Origin: Cetorhinus maximus
Taxonomy: Eukaryota
Assembly: GCF_964194155.1 (NCBI RefSeq)
Contig: NC_135898.1
Coordinates: 13,516,001 to 13,580,000, forward strand
Reading direction: 5' to 3'
Length of the DNA stretch: 64,000 nucleotides
In this document: one piece after another, positions 937 through 54,686 of the stretch
Numbering within the stretch: position 1 is the stretch's first letter
Layout: every line of letters begins with the position of its first letter
Made by a program: the position numbers and the translations under genes
Notes under the pieces: model-generated
Database searches by the model: none
Told to the model about the DNA's origin: nothing
What the model saw: the letters and a program-made list of their open reading frames with translations, nothing else

Positions 937-3900
937 CTGCTGCATCTAGTAAAATGTTTCAGAAATTTCCTCCAGATGTGTACCATGCTTTATCCAGTGA
1001 ACCACTCACTGGGAACTTCCATGACTTTTCTATTTCTGTGAAGGTAGTATTTTTCATGTTGTTCAGTGTGTCATTGTGTGCATTGCAATCAGCAGAGAGG
1101 ATGTGAAGTTGCCTGAGAATGAGGTTCAATAAAGGTTGACTAGATTAATTCCAGGGATGAGAGGGTTGGCTATGAGGAGAGATTGAGCATAAAGAGCTGA
1201 TAGTCTCCTGCGTTTAGAAGAGTGAGAGTGGATTTTTGATAGGGTGGATAACAATTTTCTTTGGGAAATTATTCATTTGACAAAGGGTGTCATTGAGAGA
1301 AGGTTGAGGATTGACGTTGCTAGCATAGAGGAAATGTTAGAAAGAAGAGAGATTCCAAAATAAATTGGATGGAAGCAAGTCACCAATTGTCAGACTTTTT
1401 TTTACAAAGAGAGGTGCTTGCTCCAAGATATTGGATCTACTGGAAGAGGGACGCCTTGTGTTATAATGCAAATATGGAAGACCAATATTTTCTTTGATTG
1501 CTTGTAATTACTCATCTATGGTAAAGAAGAAAATAAGTTTTGTTTAAAGAAAGGGGTATATGGGATCTATTAATGGTTGGTTGTATTATATAGTGTGCGA
1601 CCATACAGCTATAGAGTCATTATGGCACAGGAGGAGGTCATTTAGTCCATAGAGTCCATGCCAGCTTTCTATAGAGCAATCAAATCAGTCACATTCTCCT
1701 ATTCTATCCCATAGTTTATTTCCAGCAAGTGGCCATCCCGTTTTGTTTTGAAATTATTGATCATCGCCACATCCACAACCCTTGAAGTCAGAGAGCTCCA
1801 GGTCATTACCACTAGGTGCGCAAAAGAGTTCCTCCTCACATCCCCTCTACCTGCCTTGCCCAAACCCTGAAATCTGTGCCCCCTAGTTATTGTGCCGTCA
1901 GCTAATGGGTACAGCTTATCTCTATCTAGCTATCTAAGCTTTCATAAACTTATATGTCTGTCAAATGTCCCCTCACTCTCCTTTACTCCAGAGACAATAA
2001 CTCCAACTGCTCCAGTGTAGCTAAAACCCCTCATCCCTGGAACCATTCTGGTAAATCTCCTCTCCACCATCGCAAGCCCTTTGCATCCTTACTAAAGTGT
2101 GATGACCAGAACTGGACACAATATTCTAGTTGTGGCTTAATCAGAATTTTATAAAGGTTCATTTTTCTGAAATAGATAATGAAAAAATATATATAATTTT
2201 GTTTGTTTTCGATTAGTTTGAAAGAATGTTCTTGTGTTTTCAAAACTTGTAATTTAAAGAAAAGAGGGGAATCTGTCAATGCCTTATCAATTACATTGTT
2301 AAGAAAAACAGATCATGGGTATTTGAACACAACAATTAATTAGGGATAGCTGGGACACTGGGTGTATGTGATGAGTGTTGACACTGAACAAAGTCAGTAA
2401 ACTCAGCAAGGAAAGGCTCTGTGTCTTAGTTTTGACTTCACCAACTGGCATAGATCCCATTAACAGATGCTGAGAGTCTGTTTCCCCTAGCTGGAGAGTC
2501 TAGTTGGCTTAGTCTGAGGACAAGAAGTCGACCATTAAATCTCTTCATTCACTTCTTCACATTCAGGGTTGTGAAGCTTGGAATTTTTTAAAGTTCATTC
2601 ATGGGATGTAGGTGTCGCTCACTCAGCCAACATTTATTGCCCATCCCTAATTGCCCTTGGGAAAGTCATGGTGAGCTGCCTCCTTGAACCCCTGCAATCC
2701 ATGTGGTATAGGTACACCCACAGTGCTATTAGGGAGGGAGTTTGACCCAGCGACAGTGAAGGAACAGTGATACACTTCCAAGTCAGGATGGTGAGTGGCA
2801 TGGAGGGGAACTTGCAGGTGGTGGTGTTCCCATAGATCTGCTGCCCTTGTCCTAGAAGGTAGTGGCTGTGGGTTTGGAAGGTGCTGTCTAAGGAAGCTTG
2901 GTGAGTTCCTGCAGTGCATCTTGTAGATGGTTGCCACTGTGCGTTGGTGGTGGAGGGAGGGAATGTTTGTGGACGAATCAAGTGAGCTGCTTTGTCCTGG
3001 ATGGTGTCAAGCATCTTGTGTGTTGTTGGAGCTGCATTCATCCAGGCAAGTGGAGAGTATTCCATCACACTCATGACTTGTGCCTTGTAGATGGTGGACA
3101 GGCTTTGGGGAGTCAGGAGGTGAGTTACTTGCCGCAGCATTCCTAGCCTCTGACCTGCTCTTGTAGCCACAGTATTTATGTGGCTAGTCCAGTTCAGCTT
3201 CTGGTCATTGGTACCCCTAGGATGTTGATAGTGGAGGACTCAAGATTGTGTACTTTAGAGGGCTGTTGAACTCAGTCAGTGAGTGTGTTCAAGGTGAGAT
3301 CTACAGATTTTTAGGGAACTGAGCAATAAGGAGATAATACGAAAAAGTGGAGTTGTGATTGAAGATTGGCCATACTCCTGCTCCAATTTCTTAGGCTCTT
3401 TTGCATTGGTAAGTGAGACAGGACATGTAATTATACCAGCCCATGATCTGTATTTGTGTACAACTCATTGCTTTACTTACAGGGGAGTTAGATTTTGTAG
3501 AACATTATTCACGCACCCCAGCATCACTGAGGACAGGAGGGGAAAAAAACTGTGTGGGTTGAAAAGAGAAGATTGCAATCATGTCCTGCATCAGTCAGTG
3601 AATGACTAGATAGAACAGGTTATTTTTCCACTTCTGAGTTAGTGGTGAGGAAGACCATTTAGCCCATTTAAATTTATCCATCTAGAAAGAACATAAAGCC
3701 CCTCCACCGCTGCAATTTCTTCCCTTTATTTACATTGTAATTTGATTGCTCTTTTATTTGGCAGGCGTTTCTGGAAGATGAGAAACTGAGTAAATTCTAT
3801 TCAATCCTGTCCACCAATAATGACAGAAAGGGTGTGGAGTTTGTATCTACTATGGAGGGTAGGTTGAACAGTGTGACTGCTATTGTACAATTAACATAAC

Positions 3901-6900
3901 TGTGGCAAGAGCATTAATGGCAGTGCTGTATCGTGTACAAAGAGCACTGTTTTTTTATCATTTGTTTAACCTCCATTTCCAGATGAAGAGGCCATCTCCA
4001 AACAAGGCATCCACAAGGACACTGTTTAGCTAGTTGTTAACAGTCATGTGTTTTCTTCTCATTGCTCTGTATAAATATCAAGCTCGTTTTAGAATCATGT
4101 TTCAGTTCTTTCAACTTGTTACATTTCTTGTCACTTGGTTTAGTCAAACTTTACACATTAGTTCACATCCTCTTTATAGCCTTTTGCAAATTTTTGGCAA
4201 AATGTAATCATCAAAGATTGTTCCTTTTATGCCAATTTTTTAGAAAAATCGTTGTCCTTAGCCTCTAATTGTGGAACATTTGTTACTTATGTTTGTTTAA
4301 AAATGTTGTCACTTTGCTGAGTGACATCATTGATTGGGGTCAAGGTGACATGAAGTTTCAAGTTTTACATTTTCATTCCCAGCAACCTAGAACTGTAAAA
4401 TTATTTGTGTTACTAGCTGGCCCCCCGCTCCCTGCCCACCTTCCCGAATTGCGTGCCTTTACTAAAGTCAGCAGTAGGGCTGATCATGGGTATTAAATTT
4501 ACTGAAAACCAATCAAGTGCCTTGATTCTTGGCACAAAGAAACAAGTTCCAGCTCTTTAAAAAAAGGAGTTCCAGCTCATCTTTCCTGTGCAAAAGTTAG
4601 GGGCCATTCCCACAAATGGACCTTCCAACTCTGCAACCTCTATGACCTAGGAGGACAAGGCAGATTCATGGGAACACCACCGCCTCCAAGTTCCCCTCCA
4701 AGCCACACACTATCCTGACTTGGAACCATTCCTTCACTGTCACGGGGTCAAAACCCTGGAATTCACTTCTTTACAGCACTAACGGTGTTCCTACAACACA
4801 TGGACTGCAACGGTTCAAGAAGGCAGCACCCACCACCTTCTCAAGGGCAATTAGAGATGCACAATAAATGCTGGCCCAGCCAGCGTCGTCCACATCCCGT
4901 GAAGGAATTCAAAAAAATGATATGTTCTGGGTTGGCTATGAAGTTTTGAATGAATACTTGTGTCATGAAAATATAATAATTTTCATAATATTATTGTGAT
5001 TTATTGCTAAGCTATGTTAATAGTGGGGTTTGGATTAGTTTCTCTATGTGGATGGGTATGTGTGTGTGGGGGATTTAATTGAATTGGAGACAGCTGATTT
5101 GGAGCTTTTGAGGTATCAAAAGGAAAACTAGGTTTGAAATGCTAAATGCATAAACATGGCTCAAGTTTTAGAATGTGAGGTGTAAAGAAAATTTGCATTT
5201 TTAGATAAATTAGGTTAGTTTGAATTTCAAAGAGATGGTAAGATGTTACACCTAGCCAAAAGAAGCTAAGCCAAGTAGTGTGTTTATTTTTCCCAAAGGT
5301 TACTGATAATATGAGTACTATGAAAGATTTACATTATAAGAAAAGTAAAGTTGCAAAAGACATTGTGGAACAATGGAATTTGCGTTAAAAAGGGAGAAAC
5401 ATGTATAAAGGAGATGAGGTGATATGTAAGGATGAAGGAATTCTAAGATCTAACACAAGTGTGAAAAGCCTCCAGTCTCTGCGCATCAGGTTGCTGTGTG
5501 CAGGAACTGAAGCTAACAAAACTCACTTTGAATACCACTGTCCAGGGTATTGTGTTGCTTTGCCTGGGTCTGTTGAAACTTATTTGTTTTTACTGTTGCC
5601 TTAATGGAGGTGTAACTGGGAGCCAGATTAATTAGGGTAGTTAGGAGTTAGTATCGTGGTAATTTGCAGTCCGATGTATGGGCTTAAAATCTTTTCTTTT
5701 ATTAATAAATGTTTAATTTAGTTTTGTAAAAAAACCTCTAAGACTCGGTGGACTTAATACTACTGAATTCAGGGCACGCATCTCGAAATAAAATACAAAT
5801 TGCAAAACAGCTGTGGCAGCTGTTTCAACTTTCCCTTTGGGATTTGAGCAGCTCGGCATTTACCATCCGCTGTGCCATAACAATTTGTTTTAATCTTCCC
5901 AAGTTCAAACTTTAAGACTGATGGTTACATAGCTCTGATTCCAATCAACGGCAGAGCAAATGAAGGTGGCAAAGCATTGTTGATGTCAACTCTCTCAGTA
6001 GGTGGCTTGATGAGCATTTAGCCATTTTTCTTTGAGATTGTATTGGAGGTCCTCTTCATCCCAGTAACTGTGGATACTCAGTTTTGCATTGAAACAAAAC
6101 CCAGAAAATCACAATTAAAAATCAGTGCAGTATGATCACCAGAATAAAGAATACTAGTATGCCTAGGGAAAGCTGACAATTGTAACTGATCAGATCAGGT
6201 TTAACCAGGAAAGATTGTTTACTTCTATATAAAGCGGTTTAAAGTAGAGATATTTCCATGGGCATCGGTAAAGTCATTTAGTCACCGGGATGAATTCAAC
6301 ACGTGAAGGAATTTTGGGCCACAGGAATCAGTGGCAGGCCCTATGTTGATTCCAAGTAACAGGTCAGCCCATTCTATCAGTGATGCTGGGGATGGCAGCC
6401 TTGGTTATTCTAGCCATTCTTCAATGATGAGTTCAGCCTCCCACTCAATATGTCCTTAGTGCAAGATCCAATGCATCTTGGCGGTATTACCAAGTGGGAA
6501 CTTAACAGAATTTCAGGAGAAAGGGAAGAAACTCTTGTGGGGGTGGGGAAGGATTGTACCATACCTCTACCGTTTATAACAGTTAAAAATTATATTAATT
6601 TATCTTTCTTCATTTTTATCCAATGGAGACCAATGTTCCCTCTAAGCTGTTCACGTTGGCGGCCATGCATCAGTCCAGAGGTTACGACACATACCACTCA
6701 CAAGTCATCCCCTTGACATGCATGACGATGCAAAAAAGATATAAAGCTGCTGTGCACTGAAATTACAGGCTAACAAGAACCCAAAAAAATAGAAGGGACG
6801 TTGATGGAGATCAATATTTCACAACCACTTCCATCCTAAGCTCCCATGATACAATGTGAGGATTGCCAATGTACATTTCAGAATAGCGTCATTCACAAAT

Positions 6901-8914
6901 GGAAGGTAACGTTTCAGAGCAGGTTGGGATAGATCTGGTACGTCCTATCATGTTTAAGGAAAAAAGAATATTAGGAGGGTGACTGTAAGACCTGTATAAT
7001 ATTTCTGCACAGGACACCCTTGCAATACACACAATTGAACCAGCAGAGGATAGATGAAGCAGGACGCTGTAAGGCAACAATCTTTTATACTAGGTATTGT
7101 GAATTTTGCTCAGTAACTACTGGCTCTTAGTAACTCTTATGGTATGACCACATTGTCTCATGAAATGCTGTTTTATGAAGGACATGCACCATGTAACTGT
7201 TAGTCAAGTGCAGCTGTGTGTTATTGGCCTACTCTTTAAGACTTTTATTTAATCTAGTCAACCAGAGGCCAACTCCTCTTCAGCACTTCCTAAGGTTAAC
7301 CTGAGAGTGATTTTTTTCTCTGAAGATTAGCAACTGCTTATGAACTCCTGGCTCATCCCAGGGTCAGAGAATCCTGCAGAAAATCACAGACTTTTTCCTT
7401 GTATTTTTAAAATAACTTTTCATTTGTAACATCTGAGTGGACCCATCACCAACAATTAACAACCTGTAATAAAGATGTATGGAATGGGGGAAATGAATAG
7501 CATCTTGTGTCTGGTTATACATGTATAGTTGTACAGATTCCTAATGAGGATCTTTCATTTGTCAATCATTGCAGGCATCCTATATCCTTTCTATGGGGTC
7601 CAGTGGCATCCAGAAGTCAATCGCTTTCAGTGGCAGCAGAATTTAGCTTTCCCACACTCTCCGAATGCTGTAAAAGTCTCCTATTTCCTGTCCGATTTTT
7701 TTGTAAATGAAGGTACTTCTTTGTGGTTATGAAATGGTTGCAGCTCAGAAGAAAGCGGCATAAAAAAAATATTCTTCATGTTGCTTTTCATTCTTTTGCC
7801 AATCACCTTAAATCTATGTCCTCTGGTTCTTGACCCGTCCGCCAATGGGTACAATTTTTTGGGAGGTGATAGATGTAAAATCATGATGTTTGAAAAATAA
7901 GATGTAACCTTTTGTGCAATGACTGATCATTTTGAGGTAGATGTGAAAAGAATTAACACTTTGTTACTGTCCCTCGACCTGGACAGAGAATCCTCCCTTC
8001 CAACTCATTGCAGAGTCTGCCTTGCATTACATTCTGCATTCTTCGGTGAAAATTTGTACAATTAATCTCACTGAGTGACACTTGAATTTTGTCAATGTTC
8101 GCAATAGCTTATTTGTTTTATAGTGTTTAGGTTTACCATATGGACCAGGAAGACCCTAGATTTACTTCCTCATCTGTGTTAATTAGCTAATCTTCATCAG
8201 GTCAGGAGTAAGGATGATGCAGTTTTGAGGCAGGACTCCTTGGTTAAGGAGGGAAAGTGAACAAGCATTTTGCTCCTGATCGCTGTCCAGTGACTGTGCT
8301 GGAAAGTACTTGGATGTTGACATTGGATGAAAATAGGATTATACTCGACTGTAATTGTTCTGTGGGCAAAAAGCCTGCTGCCCCTCACTTTCATGTCTCA
8401 GACATGAAGATCATTTGGGGTTTGAGACGTTAGAGTGCAAATATACAGCAACCACAGTCATCTCCTCAGATTTCCACACATGTTCTTGAGTTAGTTGCTC
8501 TCCTCAAGACACTACTTTCTCTGTGTTTTTAAGCCAGAGTTCAGAGAGAGAGAGAGAGGAAGTACTTGCTCCGTGCTTCCTGAGAATGGATCACAAGATG
8601 ACAGAACTGATGATAAGTGAATGTGTTATTGTTGCTGTCAGTCCCTGCAGCGAGAGTGGTAATCCTGCCAGCCATTTGTTCAAAGTGCCATTGCTCCCGT
8701 TTCTGATGTGAACCAGCTCCCAGGATGAAAGTCTGTAGTTTTGATATGCTGCACTCTCAGCCTCCTTGTCAGTGATTATTTTTTATGTTTGTTCACAGCC
8801 CGGAAGAACTTCCATCATTTCAAAAACTTAAAGGAAGAGGAGGCAACTCTGATCTATAACTACAGTCCGCGCTATGTGCCTACATCCAGCTATATTCAGG
8901 TCTATTTTTTCTAA
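937..8914 (+). CDS. GGH: Gamma-glutamyl hydrolase (GGH-like), last four coding exons; 5' part lies outside the window
   Basis: Exons 937-1043, 3765-3858, 7575-7712 and 8799-8914 (TAA), with AG/GT boundaries and consistent phases. Translation: SKMFQKFPPDVYHALSSEPLTGNFHDFSISVK / AFLEDEKLSKFYSILSTNNDRKGVEFVSTME / GILYPFYGVQWHPEVNRFQW..HSPNAVKVSYFLSDFFVNE / ARKNFHHFKNLKEEEATLIYNYSP..YIQVYFF*. Collinear with the GGH C-terminus including catalytic QWHPE. May be a paralogue. Confidence 0.92.
1610..2160 (-). mobile_element. Decayed CR1 LINE 3' fragment
   Basis: Minus-strand LYKILIKPQLEYCVQFWSSHFSKD (CR1 ORF2 C-terminal motif) and a CR1-type tail near 1610. Confidence 0.7.
2590..3240 (-). mobile_element. 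CR1/L2-group non-LTR retrotransposon 3' fragment (same family as 24505-26560)
   Basis: ORF2 C-terminal peptide [37 protein letters not shown] and the family 3' tail. Confidence 0.75.
4640..4915 (+). mobile_element. 3' end of the same non-LTR family
   Basis: Ends in AATAAATGCTGGCCCAGCCAGCGTCGTCCACATCCCG plus an A-rich tail, shared with other copies in the window. Confidence 0.65.
4961..5882 (+). mobile_element. Solo LTR (~920 bp) in a GGH intron
   Basis: Starts TGTCATG and ends CATAACA. Flanked by ACTTG/ATTTG (5-bp TSD, one mismatch). Internal TATAAA (~5404) and AATAAA (5704). Highly similar to 11736-13376. Confidence 0.8.
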
Positions 8915-9398
8915 AGAAGTGCCAACAGGGAATTATTCAGTACAGTAACTTAGGTGCAGTAAATTTAAGTAAATTCTGGCAGAAAACACAGTATTTTCAC
9001 CTCACAACTACACTGGTCTGCTTGGAGATAAGGAAGTAGTCTGGCCATCAGCAAGAACCAGAAGCAGAGTGTGAACTTAGGACTGCATTTCCCTCGTACT
9101 GGAGGAAAAGTAAGTTTTAGCATCTAACAAGCAACTAATTTGTCAACTCATAAACATTACTTGCAAAATTTGAAGATATTTAACGTTCTTCCTCTGGGTG
9201 AGGGAATCCACCTTATTGTTCTATCTCCTACATTACAGCAGTGAATACACTGAAAAACATTGAATTGTAAAGCACTTTGAGATGTCCAGTGGTTGTGAAA
9301 AGCACTATTAAAAAAAAGCAAGTCTTTCTTATACATCATACATTTACTTTATACATACAATTATGCATCATTTCTACAATATCTGACAAAATTGTTTC

Positions 9399-11735: not shown

Positions 11736-13376
11736 TGTCACGAAATATAATAATTTTCATCATGTTATTGGAATTTATTGTAAAATAGGAATAGTGTTAT
11801 GAGACAGCCTTTCTGTAAAGCTGAGTTCTTTAAAAATCCCAGAGGGAAACTTTAAACAACTGTCATAACCTATATTTTTAAGTGGTATGTTTGAGACGCA
11901 ACCTTAAATTCAAGAATCAGACCACCAGTTCTCGAGAGGTTTTATATTAAACTAAATGAAACATTTTATTAATTTACACAAGTTAAGTATATCTACATAG
12001 CTACAAATTACTTCTATCATAACTTTTAACAAATTCCCAAACTAATCTCCATTAAGGTAACAGCAACCCACAGACTTAACCGGACACCAGGCAAAGCATT
12101 TTCACATTACGAATTCAAAATGAGGTTCCTTTCACTTTGGTTCCTGTGGAGACAGTTGTAGGCTTACAGCTGCTTTCATCTTACATTGTCTGTGCCTTCA
12201 TACGTGAAAACTGCCCTCTGATATCTAGCATATCTCGTTGACTGTAAGTTCTCATTGTATCACCAGCCCTTTGAACTCCACCTCGTCTAACAATAAAACC
12301 CATTTCATAGTACCAATTTTATTAGTAATATAAACATATTGCTTGGTCTCTGCTAGCTAGGTGCCAAATTTCACCCAATTCTTGAATAATCTATTCAAAA
12401 AATGCAAACGCACTCTACCTCTCTTAAATCTCAAAACTGGTACACATCAAAGCACCCAGACTAGCTGGCTTTAATCCAATTAAGACACACCCAGAGACTA
12501 AACTTCTACTTTAAAAGAAAAAATATTTTCCAATAATATTATATACATTAATAGCTACATGACGATATGTGTGTGTATGTATGTTTGTTTGTGTGTGTGA
12601 CTTAATTGAATTAAAAACAGCTGGTCTGAAGGCTTTGATGTATCAGAAGAGAGGCTAGATTTCAAGTGTTAAACAGGTAAACATGGCTGAAGTTTTAGAA
12701 TATGAGGTGTAAAGGAAAAAATGCATTTTTAGATAAACCAGAGTGATTTGAATTTCAAAAGAGGTGGTGAAATGTTACACTTAGCCAGTATAAGCCAAAC
12801 AGTGTGTTTATTTTCCCCAAAGCTTACTGATAAAGTTGGTACTATGAAAGATTTTTATTATTAGAAAAGTAGACTTAAAAAGACATATATTGGGAAAATG
12901 GAATTTACATTAAAAAGGGAGAAACCTGTATAAAGGAGATTAGGTTATGTGTGAGAGGAAGGCATTCTAAGATCTAACAAGGTGAAAAGCCTCCAGCCTC
13001 TAAGCCTCAAGTTTCTGTCTGCACGAACTGAAGTGAAGAAAACTCACTTTGAATTTGACTGTTCAGGGTATCATGTTACTTTGCCTTGGACTTTTAAAAT
13101 CTGTGTGTTTTACTGTTGCCGTAACTGGGAGTTAGATTAACTAGGGGAGATAGGAGTTATCATAGTAGTAATTTGTAAACCTATGTATGTGCTTAAAATT
13201 TTTTTTTTATTAATAAAGTTTTAATTTCGTTTTATAAGAAACCTATAAGACTCAATGGTCTTATTACTGAATTCAAGGTACTCATCTCAAAATAAATACA
13301 AATTGTAAAATAATTATTTCAAGTTTCCCTCTGGGACTTGAACAGCTCAGCATTTACCATCCACTGTGCCATAACA
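11736..13376 (+). mobile_element. Solo LTR of the same family as 4961-5882, interrupted by a nested LTR
   Basis: TGTCA...ATAACA termini and a perfect 5-bp TSD AACCC (11731-11735, 13377-13381). 12565-13376 aligns with ~5055-5882. Confidence 0.85.
11795..12564 (-). mobile_element. Related solo LTR inserted in opposite orientation
   Basis: The reverse complement begins CGTCATG and ends GGCTGTCTCATAACA. It shares the ATTAATAAA.TGTTT and other motifs with the host LTR. Flanks are ATAG/ATAT. Confidence 0.75.
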
Positions 13377-14488
13377 AACCCTGAAAGATTTGCCCTTGCT
13401 TAGTCCAAAGTCCCTGAAGCCAGTTGTAGTGCAACCTATTGCCTTCCTGGTTGGAATCAGGGAACTCAACACAGATCGCAAGTGGAGGCTGGTACTATCA
13501 AGTCTCTACGAGCCATTACCATAATCTTCAACCATCTGGGAAGCTTCATAACTCGGCTTTAATCACAGCTGTTAAGCTAAATATTAATAGATGTTTCATC
13601 ACAGTGACAAGTTCCAGCATTGCCTCTGATGAAAGTGGAATTATGGAGCTTTTACAGCTGTCCTATTTACTGTACATGCTACATAAATATTGCACTCATA
13701 TATATATATATATGTATATAGAACACAACCGTACCTGTATATATACACAGACGAAATGTCCCACGTAGATCTTGCATGTCTTTGCTGCATTGAGCTGTAA
13801 TCGTGCCATAAACATTTGGCCATTTCTAGACACAGAGATCACAAGATAGATACGGATGTGAAACTCTTCTATGTAGAAAGTACCTGCAACTCCTTTTTAG
13901 AGCAAACTACCTTATCCTGCACAACTGAATGTCTCTCCACCTGTGATCACTCAATGTGTAAAAATCTGTGTGAAAGATGGCCCTCACAACACATGTTTCA
14001 TCATATGTTTGCAGAGTAGAGCACCACGTACAATTGTAGAGTATGTGTATACTTGATGTAGCACAGTGTCTGGATAGAATGTGTAATACTGTGTAAAGGC
14101 ACAGGTTCAACACTGTACTGACAGGATACAGAACTAATTCAATCAAGCGAGCTCGAGGAGCAACCATTCATTGAAATAAAAACAAAGTGGTGGAAATACG
14201 CAGAAAATATGGCAGAATCTCGGGAGAAAAGTAGATTTGATATTCAGGTCTGTGATCTTTCATTGGGACCCAATACATGGAAAAAGAAGTAGGTTGTAAT
14301 GAATGGCATAAAGTTAAAATGCTCAGAGAGCAGGTGCAGACACGTTGAGCCGAATGGCCTCCTTCTACACCATAGAAATTCTGTGACTCTGTAGTAGAAG
14401 GGTCTGGCATATGTGGGCTAATATGGGACTGAGTATTATACCACCTACACAGTGATGTAAGACAGCACATAACCAAGACTCTACAACT

Positions 14489-14498
14489 TGGTGGCAGC
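14489..14498 (+). promoter_or_regulatory. Primer binding site complementary to the tRNA-Leu 3' end
   Basis: TGGTGGCAGC immediately after the 5' LTR is the reverse complement of GCUGCCACCA, the 3' end of vertebrate tRNA-Leu(AAG/UAG). Confidence 0.7.
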
Positions 14499-15789
14499 TT
14501 GAGGAAAAACCCAAAACTTTGCAGAACATGCAGAGAAAAACTAAAATTCTGGAAGACTTAGAAAAGGTTCAGCAAAGCAGTCGTACCTGAAAAGATACTC
14601 CAGAAGCACAGGCGCAGAGTAAAAATCATCAAGAAAATGCTCCAAAGAAAGGCTGGGAAGCTGAAGGCAGTGATTTAAAATTCCTTACTGCAGCAGAAGA
14701 CTCCAGTGCACCTCCTTTGGAAGTCCAGCTTCAAATCCCAGAGCACAGAGTCAGCAGACCAAGCAAGGATTTAAAATTACAGCTTGCAGCAAGTCCTGAG
14801 AAGTGTTTAAAAATGTTAGAGTCAGAAGTGCAGTTTGAAAAAGCCATCGCTAAAAACTCAATCCCCAAGTCAGCATCTGAACACGTTGTGTCCGAGCTCG
14901 CCCTGAAAAGATTTATAAATAACAAATTGAACACTCTGGGAGAATTGCAACTTTTTAAACTCGCTAAAAGCAAGGAAAAGCCAGGATTCTACGAATTTGT
15001 GACTTATACATAAATGCTGAGCAAGAGAACCTGGCAGGCAGCCTTTCTAGCCAGCCATTGTTGAAAATGTTTTCAAGCTGAAAGCATTTGCCATTGTTGC
15101 GGAGCCTGCCAAAACTGGCAAACCAAGGAAATCCCTTTGTCTCCAAGTGACCATGACGCCATCTTGAAATTCAGAAAGCCATAGCAATGGGTCCACAGCT
15201 GTCATCATAACACATAGTGGCCGAGCTCAACTGAATGGAAAAAAAATTTCTCTGATTTAGAAATCCACTAGATGGCCTTGGCTTATTGTTTTAAAGATTC
15301 CCTGCAGAGAATGAAAAGCTTAAAAAGACAGCCCCATCGGCACAACGGGAGCCCACCAAAACCTGAGCAGTGTGGCAAGAAGAAAAAAATGTTCCTCTGG
15401 AGCCATCTTGGAAGAAAAGAAAATTAAAGATATACTCAACTGTTAAGAAATATAGCCATGGATAGTAAATTAAAACTACCAGACCCAAAATTGGGCATTT
15501 TGGAAAAGAGAACTTGTATATTACGGGAGTACGTCAGGTTTAAGTCAGAAATCAGAAAAGTACAAGATAATACATTTTATACTCATTTGATGCATTTGCA
15601 AAAGATGCAAGGCATTGATGAATCCTCAACCAGCTTTGATGAGTATTTTAATCTTCAAGTTGTGGAGCACTCAGAGCTTAAAAATAGTAATAGAAAACCC
15701 CCAGTAAAGCTACGAAAGAGAAAAAGACATTACCTGAGTAAGCTACACAAGGGTGCTAGAGAGGCCAAGAACTTTCTGTAAATCCCAAA

Positions 15790-16750
15790 AATAGATCTTT
15801 TTTGGAAGCTGACCTGCAACAGCAGGTGGCAGTATGGAGCAAGCAGCTGACTGTGAATGAAGGAAAGCTATCTGATCAAGTATAAAATACATAACAAATG
15901 CTGCAAAAGGAAAATGAAATAAGGTTGGAAAACATTCGCAACAAAACTGAATTGGAAGATTTGAAACACAAAATTCAAACTCAGTATATACCTTTGAAAA
16001 TGGATGATAAACTACAGTTTTGAATAAACCAAACTGTTTGAGATCTAAAGAAACAAATTTCTGAGATTTCACAAAGGTGTCAGGAGGAAATAACAACTCT
16101 GAATTTTATTGTTGGTAAATCAAAGTGGGTTTGGGAAAACTCAACCGGAAATGCAGCCAGGGACGGCAGCAGGCAGAAAATGCATACCGAGAAGTTGCGG
16201 CCTTGAAAGACTCTTCGAGGAATCAAGACATGTCCCTGGGATAAAATTAGTATTTTTTAAAATTTGAATACGATTTCAGAAAAAGCTGCATTGTAACTTT
16301 CAGTAGTAACAAAGCAATGCTCTGAAGCGCAGAGTGATAGGGCAAGGCTGAACATGAAAATAAACTGTTGAAAGAACAGCTAACTGTCCTTCAAGATTAA
16401 ATTCAAAAACAGTACGTAATGCTTCAGCAGCATGAAGGAATAAAGACTAGATTGAACAGCAGAATGGAGGAACAGCAGAACAAGTTCAATTAAACTCTGT
16501 TAAATTACAAGAAAGCTCAAGACAAAGTAATTGTGCTTCACAAAGGAAAGGAAAACCTGATAAAGGACCTTCACATGTTACAATGATTGTTCAGATCAAA
16601 GTTTGTTCTCTGGAAAATTATGAAGTGAAGCAAAATTAATTTAATGTCACTCTGAAGGAACTGACGAACCAGTTGGCAGAGAAGACTCAGGAGTATTCTA
16701 TACTCCAGGAGGAAGCCAAGTGGGACTAGAAAGATACCACCGAGCTGAAG
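15790..16750 (+). pseudogene. Disrupted UACA-family (UACA/RAI14/ANKRD24/ANKRD35) coiled-coil fragment inside the LTR element
   Basis: Across stops and frameshifts: QTQYIPLKMDDKLQ; ENKLLKEQLTVLQD*IQKQYVMLQQHEGIK; LNYKKAQDKVIVLH; KELTNQLAEKTQEYSILQEEAK. As recalled, UACA has KNHYVPLKV; IKAEYISLAEHEAK; ANYRKGQEEIVTLH; KELKDQLSEQTQKYSVSEEEVK, in the same order. Confidence 0.7.
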
Positions 16751-17004
16751 AAACCTGCTCTGACATTTAGACATTCAGACAAAAACTCAGAAAAACATTA
16801 CATTCCCAAAGAGATATATGAAGAAATGGAAATCAAGAACCTAGACTGGCAAGAGAAAGTAGAACTTCTCACAAAAGAGCGTGAGGAGTACCAGAAACAA
16901 TTGACATAAGTGCATTTACAGAAAGTGAGCTTGAAAGATAGCGCAGAGGAATTATGCTCTACTAAAGAAAAACTGATCAGTGTAGAGAACCAACTTTCAC
17001 ATAC

Positions 17005-17560
17005 GAGTTTGCAAAGGAAAAGTGAAAACTTATGAGAACACTGGAATGTTGCTCACGGCAAGTAGAAATCCTTAAATGATGAATTTGTAGAAGCAAATTC
17101 AACTAAGATAGATCTTCATTTAAAACTTGATGAACCTAAAGCGCCAGAAGTCTCCAGTAAGCATCATGCAAAATGCCTGGAACAGGAGAAGGAGTTGCTC
17201 AATCAGCAGAAAAGTTGCTTGAAAGCAGAATTAACAATGAAAACTGATGAATTTCTTGAACTTTGGCCCAATCTGAACAACGTGAAGGCTGAGATACACA
17301 GTATGGAAGAGCAAATCCAGACTTTGAAAGCAGATAAGAGAAATTCTACAAAACAGATTGATCTAACGAGTGAATTGAAAGAGTCTGAGGAGCAGACAGT
17401 GACGACAGAAGACAGATTCTGAACAGAACTAAATGTCCAGGTGAAGTTGTCAAGTGTATATGAGTTCCGCAGATAACTATAAAACAAAGGCAACTCAGCT
17501 GACCAGAGTAGTTGCTGAGCTGAATGAAAAGATTCATAAGCTCGAAAATCAACTGGAAAA
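17005..17560 (+). pseudogene. TPR: Disrupted, intronless fragment of nucleoporin TPR N-terminal coiled coil inside the LTR element
   Basis: [95 protein letters not shown]. As recalled, TPR has [97 protein letters not shown]. Confidence 0.82.
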
Positions 17561-18469
17561 AAAGGAAGTACTCAAAAATTTGGATAAAATTGTGAAGCAA
17601 GTGGGTATGAGGGTTCCATTTTTGATACATAAGCTTCCCCATACATTGTGACAACCCACATGATGACAGAAGAAGTGAAAAAAGCGACAAGGCAACAAGC
17701 ACAATGTTCGTCCACCCAGCAAGAAATCAGCTAAGGTAGCAATCATCGACCAGCGCAACAGCCAAACCAAACAAGTGCGGTTGAACATGAAGGAATAGAA
17801 GAAAAGGATGAAAACCTATGCAGATGCAAGAACAACCTGCAAACCTACAGGAAGAGCCAGCAGCGACAGAGCCTACCACTCCAACAGTAGTGTGAACGAG
17901 ATATGGAAGGGTTATAAGGCCTTCAGACCACCTGAACCTTTAAATGCAAGAGATGTAAGGGGGGAGGCGGGGCAGTGATAATATAGCAATGACATTGTGA
18001 ATGTATGATAGGAATAATAATGTAAGGCATAAGGTAAACTATAATCATTTAAAATACATTGGATAAAGACTTGGGGGAGGTGTAGTATAAGTGTTTGGCA
18101 CATATAGGGTTAATGTGAGACTGAATACAGTACTACCCACACAGTGATATAAGAGAACACATAACCTGTACCCATGGTCAGTTGATTATTGGACAAAGGT
18201 GTGAGGACCAGCAAGCATGGAGCCAACTCCTAGCTTGTACCCTTTACTGTACATTTGTTTATATATTTCTCAGAGTCAATGAAGACTTAGGTAACCTACA
18301 TATGACTACAAAGACTTATTCAGATCTACTGCACTGTTGCCAAAACCCCACAACAACGAAGGTGAACAAAGTGGAAGAGACAAACAGAAATCTGGTCAGA
18401 GAAAAGTGCAGAACTTCCTCAAAGTGTGCATTCCTGGAAGGGAAGTGGCATTGAATTAAAAAACTATTA

Positions 18470-38319: not shown

Positions 38320-39723
38320 TGTAAAAATATACTTTATTCATAAAATATCTTCAATCACATTCAAAACCATTTCAAAAACAACATTACAAGGGTACAATCC
38401 AGGTTAAACTTTTACAAAATGTATCACCAGGTGCATCAGTACAAACAATATTACAATCATTTACAGCCTTTCATTTTGATCTGTACAGCCCGAGGGGCTC
38501 TAAACAGTTCCCAGTCTCTCGGTGCGCTGTGGTAGAAAGGTCTTAGACAGCTACCCTTCCCCATTGCGCCTTTGAAGCAGCTGCCCCAAGCTTTAGTGCG
38601 TCCCTCAGCACGTAGTCCTGGACTTTGGATTGTGCCAGTCCGCAACAATCGGTCGGGGACAACTCTTTGTGCTGGAAGACCAACAAGTTTCGGGCAGACC
38701 AAAGCGCGTCTTTCACCGAGTTGATGATCCTCCAGCTGCAGTCGATGTTTGTCTCGGTGTGTGTCCCTGGGAACAGCCCGTAGAGCACAGAGTCCTGTGT
38801 CACAGAACTGCTCGGGATGAACCTCGACAGCAACCACTGCATCTCTCTCCAGACTTTCTTTGCAAAGGCACAATCCACAAGGAGGTGAACAACGGTCTCT
38901 TCCCCACCACAGCCACCTCGAGGGCAACGTGCAGAGGGGGTGAGCCTCCTGGCGTGTAGGAAGGATCTGACGGGGAGGGCCTTTCTCACCACCAGCCAAG
39001 CTACGTCTTGGTGCTTGTTGGAAAGTTCTGGCGATGAGGCATTCTGCCAAATGACTTTGACAGTCTGCTCGGGGAACCATCCCACAGGGTCCACCCTCTC
39101 CTTTTCCCTCAGGGCCTCTAGGACATTACGTGCTGACCACTGCCTGATGGACTTGTGGTCAAAGGTGTTTTTCTGCATCAATTTTTCCAACAGGGACAGG
39201 TGGTACGGCACGGTCCAACTACTTGGAGCGTTCCGCGGCAGCGTGGCCAGACCCATCCTTCGCAACACCGGGGACAGGTAGAACCTCAGCACGTAGTGAC
39301 ACTTGGTGTTTGCGTACTGAGGGTCTACGCACCGCTTGATGCAGCCACACACAAAGGTGGCCATCAGTATGAGGGCGATGTTGGGCACGTTTTTTCCCCC
39401 TTTATCTAGAGGCTTGTACATCGCGTCCCTGCGGACACGATCCATTTTCGACCTCCAGATAAAGCGGAAGATGGCTCGAGTGATCGCCATCGCGCAGGAG
39501 TGTGGAATGGGCCAGACCTGCGCCACGTACAGCAACAGCGAGAGTACCTCACACCTGATGACCAGGTTCTTACCCGCAATGGAGAGGGAGCGTCGCTCCC
39601 ACATGCCCAGTTTCCTTTTCACCATAGCCACTCGCTCCTTCCAGTTTCTAACGCATGCCCCGGTCCCTCCGAACCATATCCCCAGCACCTTCAGGCCGTC
39701 AGCCCTGACAGTGAAGGGGACAT
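38320..39723 (-). mobile_element. Tx1-like (L1-group) non-LTR retrotransposon, 5'-truncated, with an uninterrupted ORF2 C-terminus
   Basis: Open frame 38543-39727: KVLGIWFG..WERRSLSIAGKNLVI..KGGKNVPNI..CPRGGCGGEETVVHLLVDC (CCHC zf-RVT). 3' UTR with AATAAA and an A tail at ~38310-38340. Confidence 0.88.
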
Positions 39724-40570
39724 TCATTTCAATGTTGACATTACATAAAGTGCAAACAGATTAATTTCCTTCAATACAGTATGTGGCACTCTGAGGTGCC
39801 TCCCTACACTTTACAATTACAAGTTCAATTTCATATCAAGCATACAGCCTGAGCGGTTTTTAGTTTCCAGCCCCTCGGTGTACTACGGCAGAAGTGCCTG
39901 AGACAGTGAGTGGCCTTTCCCCACTGAGCCTTTGTGGCAGCTGCCCCGGCCCTTTGTGTGTCCCTCAGCGCACCATCTGGGACTTTGAAATGTGCACGTC
40001 TGTGGCACTCAGCTGTTGACAGCTCTTTGCTTGGATGACCAGAAAGTTTCGGGTAGACCAACGAGGCTCTTTCACTGAGCCAGTGATCCTCCAGCAGCAG
40101 TTGCATCCCAATTTCCTTCACCCTCAGCTGCCTAAACTCTGAAATTCCCTCCCAGTTTTCCACCTCTTTCTCAGTGCTCCTTTTGAAAAAGCTTTTGGTC
40201 ATGCGCCCTTATATCTCCTTATGTAGCTTAATATCAAATTTTTGTCTAATTATTGTCCTGGGGCATATTATTACATTAAAGGTGCTGCTGTATTCCAATG
40301 CCAGTTGCCTGGGTTGTGCAGGACAAGCAGCATGGACCCTTTAAAGCCAATGTGCGCTGTGGCGCACGCGCAGTATGGGCGGAATGCGACTCTCGCTTGA
40401 CTATTATTCTACGTCATCACGCACACGCATAAATATACATAATTAATTACTAAGGCTTTCGAAAATAAGATTTAGATTTTAAGAAGTCACCAAACCAAAA
40501 GAAACCGCAAGAGAACCAAGTGAACGCGTCCCTACCAGAGGACGCCAAGGAAATGGGGACATGTTTTGGT

Positions 40571-41400: not shown

Positions 41401-43125
41401 ACCATAAGACCATAAGACATAGGAGCAGAAATTAGGCCCTTCGGCCCATTGAGTCTGCTCCGCCATTCAATCATGGCTGATAAGTTTCTCAACCCCACTC
41501 TCCCGCCTTCTCCCCATAACCTTTGATCCCCTTACCAATCAGTCTTAAATACACACAATGACCTGGCCTCCACAGCCTTCTGTGCCAATGAATTCCATAG
41601 ATTCACCACTCTCTGGCTAAAGAAGTTTCTCCTCATCTCTGTTCTAAAAGTTCTTCCCTTTACTCTGAGGCTGTGCCCTTGGGTCCTAGTCTCTCCTACT
41701 AATGGAAACATCTTCCCCACGTCCACTCTATCCAGGCCTTTCAGTATTCTGTAACTTTCAATCAGATCCCCCCTCATCCTTCTAAACTCCATCTAGTATA
41801 GACCCAGAGTCCTCAAACGTTCCTCATAAGTGAAGCCTTTCATTTCTGGGATCGTTCTCGTGAACCTCCTCTGGACCCTCTCCAGGGCCAGCACATCCTT
41901 CCTGAGATATGGGGCCCAAAATTGCTCACAATATTCTAAATGTGGTCTGACCAGAGCCTTATAAAGCCTCAGCAGCACATTCCTGCTTTTATATTCTGGT
42001 CCTCTCGAAATAAATGCCAACATTACATTTGCCTTCCGAACTACCAACTCAACCTGCAAGTTAACCTTAAGAGAATCCTGGACTAGGACTCCCAAGTCCC
42101 TTTGCACTCCAGATTTCTGAATTCGCTCCCCATTTAGAAAATAGTCTATGCCTCTATTCTTCCTACCAAAGTGCATGACCTCACACTTCCCCACGTTGTA
42201 TTCCATCTGCCACTTCTTTGCCCATTCTCCTAACCTGTCCAAATCCATCTGCAGCCTCCCCGCCTCCTCAATACTACCTGTCCCTCCACCTATCTTTGTA
42301 TCATCTGCAAACTTAGCCAGGATGCCCTCAGTTCCTTCATCTAGATCATTAATGTATAAAGTGAAAAGTTGCGGTCCCAACACTGACCCCTGCGGAACTC
42401 CACTAGTCACCGCCGCCATCCTGAGAAGGACCCCCTTATCCCCACTCTCTGCCTGCTGCCAGACTGCCAATCTTCTATCCATGCTAGTACCTTGCCTCTA
42501 ACACCATGGGCTCTTATCTTACTGAGCAGCCTCCTGTGCGGCACCTTGTCAAAGGCCTTCTGGAAGTCCAAGTAGATAACATCCATTGGCTCTCCTTTGT
42601 CTAACCTACTCGTTACCTCCTCAAAGAATTCTAACAGATTTGTCAGGCATGACCTCCCCTTGATGAAACCATGCTGACTTTGCCCTATTTTACCATGTGC
42701 TTCCAAGTATTCTGAAATCTCATCCTTAATAATGGACTCTAAAATCTTACCAATGACCGAGGTCAGGCTAATCGGCCTGTAATTTCCCGTCTTTTGCCTC
42801 ACTCCCTTCTTAAACAGGGGAACCCTGTTACATTAGCGATTTTCCAGTCCTCTGGGACCCTCCCTGACTTCAGTGATTCCTGAAAGATCACCACTAACGC
42901 CTCTGCTATCTCTTCAGCTATCTCCTTCAGAACTCTGGGGTGTAATCCATCTAGTCCAGGTGATTTATCCACCTTCAGACCTTTCAGTTTTCCTAGCACC
43001 TTCTTGGTAATGGCCACCATACTCACCTCTGCCTCCCGACTCTCTTGAACTTTGGTGATGTTACTCGTGTCTTCCACCGTGAAGACTGACGCAAAGTACC
43101 TATTCTGTTACTCCGCCATTTCTTT
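41401..43125 (-). mobile_element. Relatively young 5'-truncated CR1 LINE (RT domain, few disablements)
   Basis: NYRPISLTSVIGK, QHGFIKGRSCLTNL, YLDFQKAFDKVPH and [15 protein letters not shown] motifs; (CCATAAGA)n tail at 41402. It interrupts an older + strand CR1 piece. Confidence 0.92.

Positions 43126-44788: not shown

Positions 44789-54686
<9,898 letters not shown>

Follow-up and report, generated by a model that had tools for sequence, protein, structure and literature searches.

The window analysed here, a 64,000-nucleotide stretch of the 4.0-Gb genome of the shark Cetorhinus maximus (C21:13.516–13.580 Mb), holds a segment resembling the N-terminal coiled coil of TPR, and it raises the questions of how a piece of this nuclear-basket protein reached its present position, whether it was ever kept there as a protein and what it could have done. 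An initial annotation attributed the segment to capture by a retroelement, proposed a period of protein-level selection inside that element and suggested that the fragment acted as a decoy of the nuclear basket.

Spliced TPR mRNA inside a pol-less LTR retrotransposon

Nucleotides 17066–17419 match the Pfam family Nucleoprot-TPR (E = 1.5e-9; 38 bits, cut-off 27), and TPR is the best match, in agreement with the initial annotation. The best match of the TPR family in the genome was a true exon with splice sites, from which exons 1–12 of the host TPR gene were mapped at C18:68.549–68.570 Mb. The window is collinear with the host TPR cDNA from nucleotide 292 to 1327 (codons 98–441 with gaps) at 78% identity, and the captured sequence occupies 16946–17634 on the forward strand, which also carries all features of the element described below; the interval originally assigned, 17005–17560, lies inside TPR but is narrower than the true span. 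The absence of introns is borne out by comparison with the host gene, as exon junctions 3/4, 5/6, 6/7, 7/8 and 8/9 are crossed exactly, the host introns from 3/4 to 9/10 measuring 740–7,492 nt. At the crossed junctions, 9–14 of 15 bases per side are identical to the exon, whereas only 0–5 of 15 agree with the start of the intron. A deletion private to the window copy covers junction 4/5, and a family deletion covers junction 9/10; across copies each junction from 3/4 to 8/9 is crossed by 38–65 copies with no indel within 6 nt. This exact crossing of junctions indicates that the TPR fragment is derived from mRNA.

The window family retains only codons 98–207, 219–303, 338–354 and 419–440 of TPR. 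The missing equivalent of LLALGREKGNE, which had been noticed at the outset, corresponds to an in-frame deletion of 33 nt, a length that 27 of the 30 copies found by DNA likeness share exactly, and family-wide in-frame deletions of 96 and 186 nt account for further gaps. The longest captured TPR sequence in any copy ends at codon 461–462, that of the window family at 441, and exon 11 and exons 13–17 were absent from all 307 loci checked. A processed TPR pseudogene made by a LINE was rejected, since the segment is flanked by LTRs, covers no more than the first 460 of over 2,000 codons and has no match to exons 13–17; exon skipping was rejected as the origin of the shared deletions because their breakpoints do not lie at exon ends. 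The window copy carries private deletions of 7, 20, 3 and 2 nt in addition to stops, and its frame is thus not intact. A natural open TPR frame of 157 residues is predicted to form a single helix (pLDDT 94, from an alignment that included relatives of host TPR). The TPR fragment matched no solved structure, and no annotated Gag–TPR fusion was present in 62 homologues of near length or in the best 150 of 5,213 representatives.

The carrier is indeed a retroelement, namely a defunct copy of a non-autonomous LTR retrotransposon of the Ty3/Gypsy type, ~4 kb long (14390–18355) and without pol. Its 5′ LTR (14390–14488) starts with TGTAGT, is internally deleted here and is 79% identical over 86 nt to the 3′ LTR (18081–18355), which runs for 275 bp from TG to CA; elsewhere the full-length 5′ LTR measures ~275 bp, and complete LTR pairs are found at L076, L100, L145, L148 and L150. 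The primer-binding site (14489–14498) consists of 10 nt complementary to the 3′ end of host tRNA-Leu and directly follows the 5′ LTR in other copies too, the matching host genes having been identified by searching the genome for a 22-base tRNA motif and confirming the matches as tRNA-Leu with ARAGORN. The leader of ~1 kb (14499–15457) is non-coding at the family level, with stops shared in three frames among 20 copies, and a 140-residue frame at 14591–15010 was rejected as a gene because it has no Pfam match and shared stops occur in every frame. A start ATG, the Gag capsid N-terminal domain and a linker follow at 15458–15861, as located by tblastn against better-kept copies, and are broken in the window copy. 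The top Atlas match of this domain is 'Retrotransposon gag' (0.95), with no Pfam match, and the window Gag, read by eye against that of a sister family, lacks the C-terminal domain of the capsid and most of the Cys–His knuckle.

Downstream of Gag lie a captured UACA coiled coil (15862–16837), an in-frame bridge of 36 codons with no assigned source (16838–16945), the TPR segment and the end of the family reading frame (17635–17678), with the first shared stop near 17676. The 3′ tail (17679–18072) is common to sister families and contains a motif, TR.GR.I..P..L.L, that we take to be typical of Gypsy pol ends, with no Pfam match; a G-rich polypurine tract (18073–18080) immediately precedes the 3′ LTR in almost all copies compared. 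The internal 3.6 kb therefore comprises leader, Gag, UACA, TPR and tail, with no reverse transcriptase or integrase between the LTRs, and searches by LTR, Gag and tail for a helper with pol gave only pol-less relatives among the best-scoring loci. Among 33 sequences screened for target-site duplications, most without one end, exact 5-bp duplications were found at L098, L143, L146 and L149 and duplications with one mismatch at L148 and L150; none was recognisable at the window copy.

Neither the UACA capture nor the Gag domain fused upstream had featured in the initial annotation. This second gene has four shark UACA proteins as its closest named relatives, and the captured part comes from one large exon of the host gene at C27:11.44 Mb (exon nt 865–1938, 73–90% identity by block). 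UACA is carried by 27 of the 30 loci found by Gag. Because the distances between Gag and UACA anchors were too variable for the frame to be read from them, stops were scanned column by column, with the middle of UACA checked by subfamily. Over 15487–16130 (17 copies), the Gag frame contains no shared stops, compared with 16 and 19 in the other frames, and over 16650–17675 (20 copies) the TPR-region frame again contains none, compared with 40 and 39 in the other two frames over 16650–18080. The junction between UACA and TPR is in frame at the modal anchor distance of 183 nt in 15 of 35 copies, including the window copy. At the family level, the Gag N-terminal domain, the UACA coil and the TPR coil lie in a single reading frame, which ends ~400 nt 5′ of the 3′ LTR. 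Separately, a UACA-carrying copy at L143 holds, before its tail, an open frame that resembles histone H2B by eye (reverse strand, ~5769–6263).

Elsewhere in the window, nested inverted repeats at 11815–13377 (11815–12169 versus 12998–13357, 12286–12375 versus 12766–12865 and 12444–12501 versus 12584–12641), which are partly repeated at 5056–5883 and in L077, probably represent a foldback DNA element. The minus strand carries the remains of a non-LTR retroelement at 38457–39760 and 41793–42497 (zf-RVT, E = 7.7e-11; RVT_1, E = 1e-11), and a minisatellite with a 32-bp unit lies at 44925–45471 (~15 copies, 97% matches).

Age of the families and history of the TPR cassette

At least 150 loci exceed the Pfam TPR cut-off, 150 of 1,687 candidates having been scored and all having passed, one of them being the host exon. 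First-look searches returned 3,150 candidates with the window DNA, 1,687 with the TPR family, 9,223 with the UACA part, 9,167 with the Gag part and 5,232 with the LTR plus leader, although such counts (1,687–9,223) are not copy numbers. All copies are old and broken, with a median likeness of 80–86%, and no young copy was found, the top match to the LTR plus leader reaching 87% and most lying at 83–85%. A pair with 99% identity (L003/L008), considered as young copies, looks like a segmental duplicate, and one member was dropped; long open frames in L061 proved to be tandem-repeat artefacts. Contigs from two other species span the edges of the window element into its flanks at ~2–4% divergence, and the DNA of these species contains many TPR pieces with exons 5/6 and 6/7 joined. 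Both the insertion and the family are therefore older than the species split.

The TPR cassette also occurs on a second backbone, termed family B, whose Gag and LTRs differ from those of the window family (family A). Family B encodes, in one frame, a coiled-coil Gag, SCAN (E = 1.1e-8, above cut-off), CCHC (zf-CCHC, E = 0.0014) and a protease (RVP, E = 0.00065, just below cut-off), followed by TPR from its 5′ UTR onwards, with 669 codons open at L062; a single-sequence fold of this 669-residue frame was of low confidence (pLDDT 46). The protease ends in LGNDL, and the full Gag with a DTG protease is kept in 22 of 36 copies. TPR stands behind the protease, in place of pol, in 28 of the 30 loci found by protease, and the junction, where the end of the protease meets the TPR 5′ UTR, is in frame in 11 of 12 family B copies. 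Database relatives of this backbone continue at that point into other pol sequence, and none of the best 150 carries TPR.

In the main B group (L063:5330–5965 and L064:5018–5437; 1,514 candidates), TPR codon 238 is followed by ~300 codons that are partly coiled-coil-like. This tail has no Pfam match and no homologue, and within the genome it occurs only in element copies. Near-identical segmental duplicates of B copies lie on G000:C24, C22, C215, C1272 and C1433 (L068, L079, L191–L198), with L068 and L079 adjoining zinc-finger-like frames.

The tree of TPR copies is ladder-like from host TPR with the B-backbone copies basal, and the 96- and 186-nt TPR deletions are common to early B-backbone copies and to families A and C. 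From these features we infer a single TPR capture in family B and a later transfer into the Gag–UACA backbone. TPR mRNA would have been captured once, by template switching, from its 5′ UTR and beside the protease of a family B Gag(SCAN)–protease element; in-frame deletions would then have shortened the cassette before recombination carried it into an unrelated Gag–UACA element, giving families C and A.

Two further groups were observed among the relatives. Loci L135–L139 combine the Gag N-terminal domain with a longer UACA piece and a short TPR remnant, and this family seems to have mostly lost the TPR cassette again. A sister family of LTR elements that shares the 3′ tail of the window element (1,761 first-look candidates; L271–L274, L277, L279, L280, L282, L284, L286, L288, L289, L291, L293 and L297; e.g. 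G000:C21:33554341–33557619) has a fuller Gag, a Cys–His knuckle, a protease-like motif and a short further coiled coil, with no reverse transcriptase seen in the 1.5 kb 5′ of the tail. The sister-family coil has no Pfam match, and SPATA24, with only 2 matches, was rejected as its source. This family may be the parent backbone, perhaps with a third captured gene. Three different coils are found across these lineages, those of TPR and UACA and the further one in the sister family.

Selection on the captured coils

Selection on TPR was analysed with a 64-state codon model by branch class, summed over ancestral states, using 69 copies and the host over 289 codons; the 69 copies are the 72 usable ones minus one near-duplicate and two A/C mosaics, with low-scoring, duplicate and short rows dropped earlier. 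The dN/dS ratio was 1.02 on terminal branches, which follow insertion, and 0.65 on the tied trunk, along which the elements were replicating (LRT 7.7, p = 0.0056). By class, the ratio was 0.67 on the A trunk (p = 0.046), 0.57 on the B trunk (p = 0.047), 0.77 on the A+C stem, 0.36 on deep branches and 0.10 on the host stem. In the shifted frames, the terminal ratio stayed near 1.0 and the trunk rose to 1.75 and 1.62, and neutral simulations gave a trunk ratio of 0.95–1.32 in six of six runs. Removal of CpG-prone codons left the trunk at 0.64 versus 0.98 on terminal branches (p = 0.024). An enlarged B set yielded 0.44 versus 0.87 (p = 0.009), ratios in B and C being open to bias because these copies were partly found by TPR likeness, whereas those of family A were found mainly by DNA. 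A B sample selected by protease contained too little trunk to be informative on TPR (p = 0.74). Codons 166–207 are kept in all families, which is not evidence of selection since the copies were found with that region.

On the TPR trunk and deep branches, 0.7 changes to proline were seen versus 7.4 expected, 1.2 versus 13.3 to stop and 4.0 versus 11.5 to glycine; proline and stop changes together amounted to 1.9 versus ~21. Family A alone gave 0.9 versus 8.9 (P = 0.0014, or 0.016 without CpG codons, the other classes then being singly non-significant). UACA (59 copies and the host) gave a trunk ratio of 0.72 versus 0.98 (p = 0.054), and its trunk bore 2.0 changes to proline and 1.1 to stop where the terminal mix predicted ~4.5 and ~9.6. 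When mutation types were matched, missense changes alone also fell below neutral, at 0.69 for TPR and 0.72 for UACA. The mutation spectrum was similar on trunk and terminal branches, and the three stops that occur in at least half of a subfamily all fall on arginine codons containing a CpG in the host.

Deletions followed the same pattern. All 10 family-wide deletions (201, or 162 + 39, 117, 33, 96 and 186 nt in TPR; 102, 282, 453, 450 and 126 nt in UACA) are multiples of three, with a probability of 0.011 under a microhomology-matched null, compared with 22 of 113 private indels; microhomology alone yields 45–92% in-frame deletions, depending on homology length. The frame-preserving divergence that the initial annotation read in the window thus holds for family-shared changes but not for the window copy, with its private frameshifts and stops. 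In family B, L056 and L060 have a common 5-nt frameshift near the TPR end.

These results support protein-level selection on the captured coils during element replication, as originally proposed, the ratio on replicating branches not being near 1 and the shared deletions being in frame rather than of random length. They show selection against stops, frameshifts and helix-breaking prolines. The constraint on ordinary missense changes was mild, with a ratio of 0.65 versus about 0.1 for host TPR. The trunk ratio of the B capsid was 0.10–0.14 (one short branch each), and the coils are thus far less constrained than the capsid. No trunk-versus-terminal signal was detected in the B tail after TPR (p = 0.66) or in the B linker and protease (p = 0.93).

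Possible roles of the coils and known counterparts

The reading that we favour, with a probability of roughly one half, is that the UACA and TPR rods joined to the Gag N-terminal domain oligomerised Gag, leading to co-assembly with helper particles and carriage of the element's own RNA. A leucine zipper can stand in for the nucleocapsid of retroviral Gag, and the coils would similarly restore the multimerisation that the element gave up along with its capsid C-terminal domain and knuckle. The truncated Gag with its coils would join helper particles and bring in the element RNA, and reverse transcriptase and integrase would be supplied in trans by a helper element. That UACA is under the same selection pattern as TPR points to a generic coiled-coil role. 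Family B stands against a role of the rod as replacement, since it keeps a full Gag and protease and the coil replaces nothing there.

A second explanation, possible although we judge it rather unlikely, is that only the open frame mattered, translation to near the 3′ end having shielded the RNA from nonsense-mediated decay or linked it to packaging, and that the coils were tolerated filler captured in frame. Stops and frameshifts are the changes most strongly excluded, large pieces of coil were deleted repeatedly in both genes and the missense constraint is mild, all of which speak for it. An open frame as such does not account for the depletion of proline (0.7 versus 7.4) and glycine (4.0 versus 11.5) or for missense changes below neutral (0.69 and 0.72), and the frame stops ~400 nt before the 3′ LTR anyway.

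It appears less probable still that the element used the first TPR coil to bind host TPR, as a dominant negative or a tether, and thereby eased the export of unspliced RNA or blunted TPR-linked silencing. In favour of this reading, two unrelated backbones retained the cassette, which apparently passed from one to the other. TPR has been linked to the retention of CTE-type unspliced RNA in the accessible part of PMC3258255 and, in the mouse work covered by the available text of PMC7618654, which contains no mention of sharks, to piRNA-directed methylation via SPOCD1; in a model proposed in the accessible portion of bioRxiv 10.64898/2026.10.08.757499, the first coil folds onto coil 4, the bearer of the SPOCD1 site. 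The same portion places ZBD1 at residues 29–88, ZBD2 at 386–481 and the pore-anchoring domain at 450–606 (shark numbering is one off that of bird and fish and was assumed equal to human). No capture included the pore-anchoring domain or the SPOCD1 site (775–877), families A and C and the main B group have lost ZBD1, and ZBD2 is broken. The ZC3HC1 sites are correspondingly absent or broken in these groups, with exon 2 surviving in 2 early copies. Moreover, according to the text available for PMC3258255, N-terminal TPR fragments were found mostly in the cytosol and the import signal lies at the C terminus; whether TPR generally retains intron-containing RNA is a matter of dispute. With the anchor never captured, both ZC3HC1 sites deleted or broken, UACA showing the same pattern and sister families having spread with a TPR remnant or none, the nuclear-basket decoy suggested initially is not upheld. 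We likewise regard as doubtful the wider proposal that the first coil was a transferable accessory protein, kept by selection and passed between unrelated lineages, that paired with host TPR to weaken a TPR-dependent barrier, either to the export of unspliced RNA or in the form of germline silencing. If true, it would make this coil a retrotransposon-encoded antagonist of the nuclear basket taken from the basket itself, and a decoy would offer a natural probe for the disputed role of TPR in holding unspliced RNA.

The idea that the coils were neutral cargo, their signals arising from tree error, mutation bias, microhomology or patching by host mRNA, is very improbable and already largely refuted: microhomology does favour in-frame deletions, later re-captures could leak host-lineage changes into deep branches and the single tests for the A and B trunks are moderate (p = 0.046 and 0.047), but terminal branches lie at ~1.0 in three frames, no simulated trunk fell below 0.95, trunk and terminal branches have similar mutation spectra and the shared stops sit on host CpG arginine codons.

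The element can be set beside several known systems. As in transducing retroviruses with gag-onc genes, a host mRNA is fused in frame to gag in a defective element. In the pol of Gmr1-like Gypsy elements, integrase is placed before reverse transcriptase. Family B resembles the Gmr1-like Ty3/Gypsy elements, from whose Gag SCAN derives (PMC8321522, as far as its accessible text goes), in its coiled-coil Gag, SCAN, CCHC knuckle and protease ending in LGNDL, but has TPR after the protease where relatives continue into other pol sequence. TPR-MET-type fusions, as presented in the text available for PMC3258255, likewise reuse the N-terminal TPR coil in a fusion protein. The shark element differs from these fusions and from gag-onc viruses in having no kinase or signalling domain, and it is a retrotransposon of the germline rather than a tumour virus or the product of a somatic translocation. 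Non-autonomous LTR elements that encode only Gag, such as TR-GAG and, in the accessible part of PMC11302176, RLG_Quinta, share the lack of reverse transcriptase and integrase, a Gag frame with an extra domain and the need for a helper. The extra domains of the shark element are host-derived (TPR and UACA), its window family keeps only the Gag N-terminal domain and its host is a vertebrate.

The element falls within the definition of an LTR-mediated retrocopy as worded in the available parts of PMC5131818 and of a review (PMC8232201). In LTR-mediated retrocopies as described in the accessible sections of PMC5131818, where maize Bs1 is cited among them, a partial spliced host mRNA similarly replaces the internal ORFs between LTRs, two parental genes can be joined and copies can move again as non-autonomous elements. 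The cases described there are young or decaying and occupy few insertion sites, whereas the shark chimera founded long-lived families of at least 150 copies and probably thousands, in frame with Gag under selection and with TPR in two backbones. The literature searched, which took in few subscription journals and no repeat libraries and left out UACA by name, yielded no account of a retroelement capturing TPR or UACA.

For annotators of this genome, the finding is a warning that it holds TPR- and UACA-like matches, at least 150 of them and probably thousands, that are not paralogues. LTR elements are known to capture genes, but what they take up ordinarily degenerates or ends up serving the host. 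In this vertebrate genome, host sequence was instead retained as protein to the element's advantage over many successive subfamilies, which amounts to domestication in reverse and provides a measurable case of a parasitic, pol-less element gaining domains, with coiled coils picked repeatedly.
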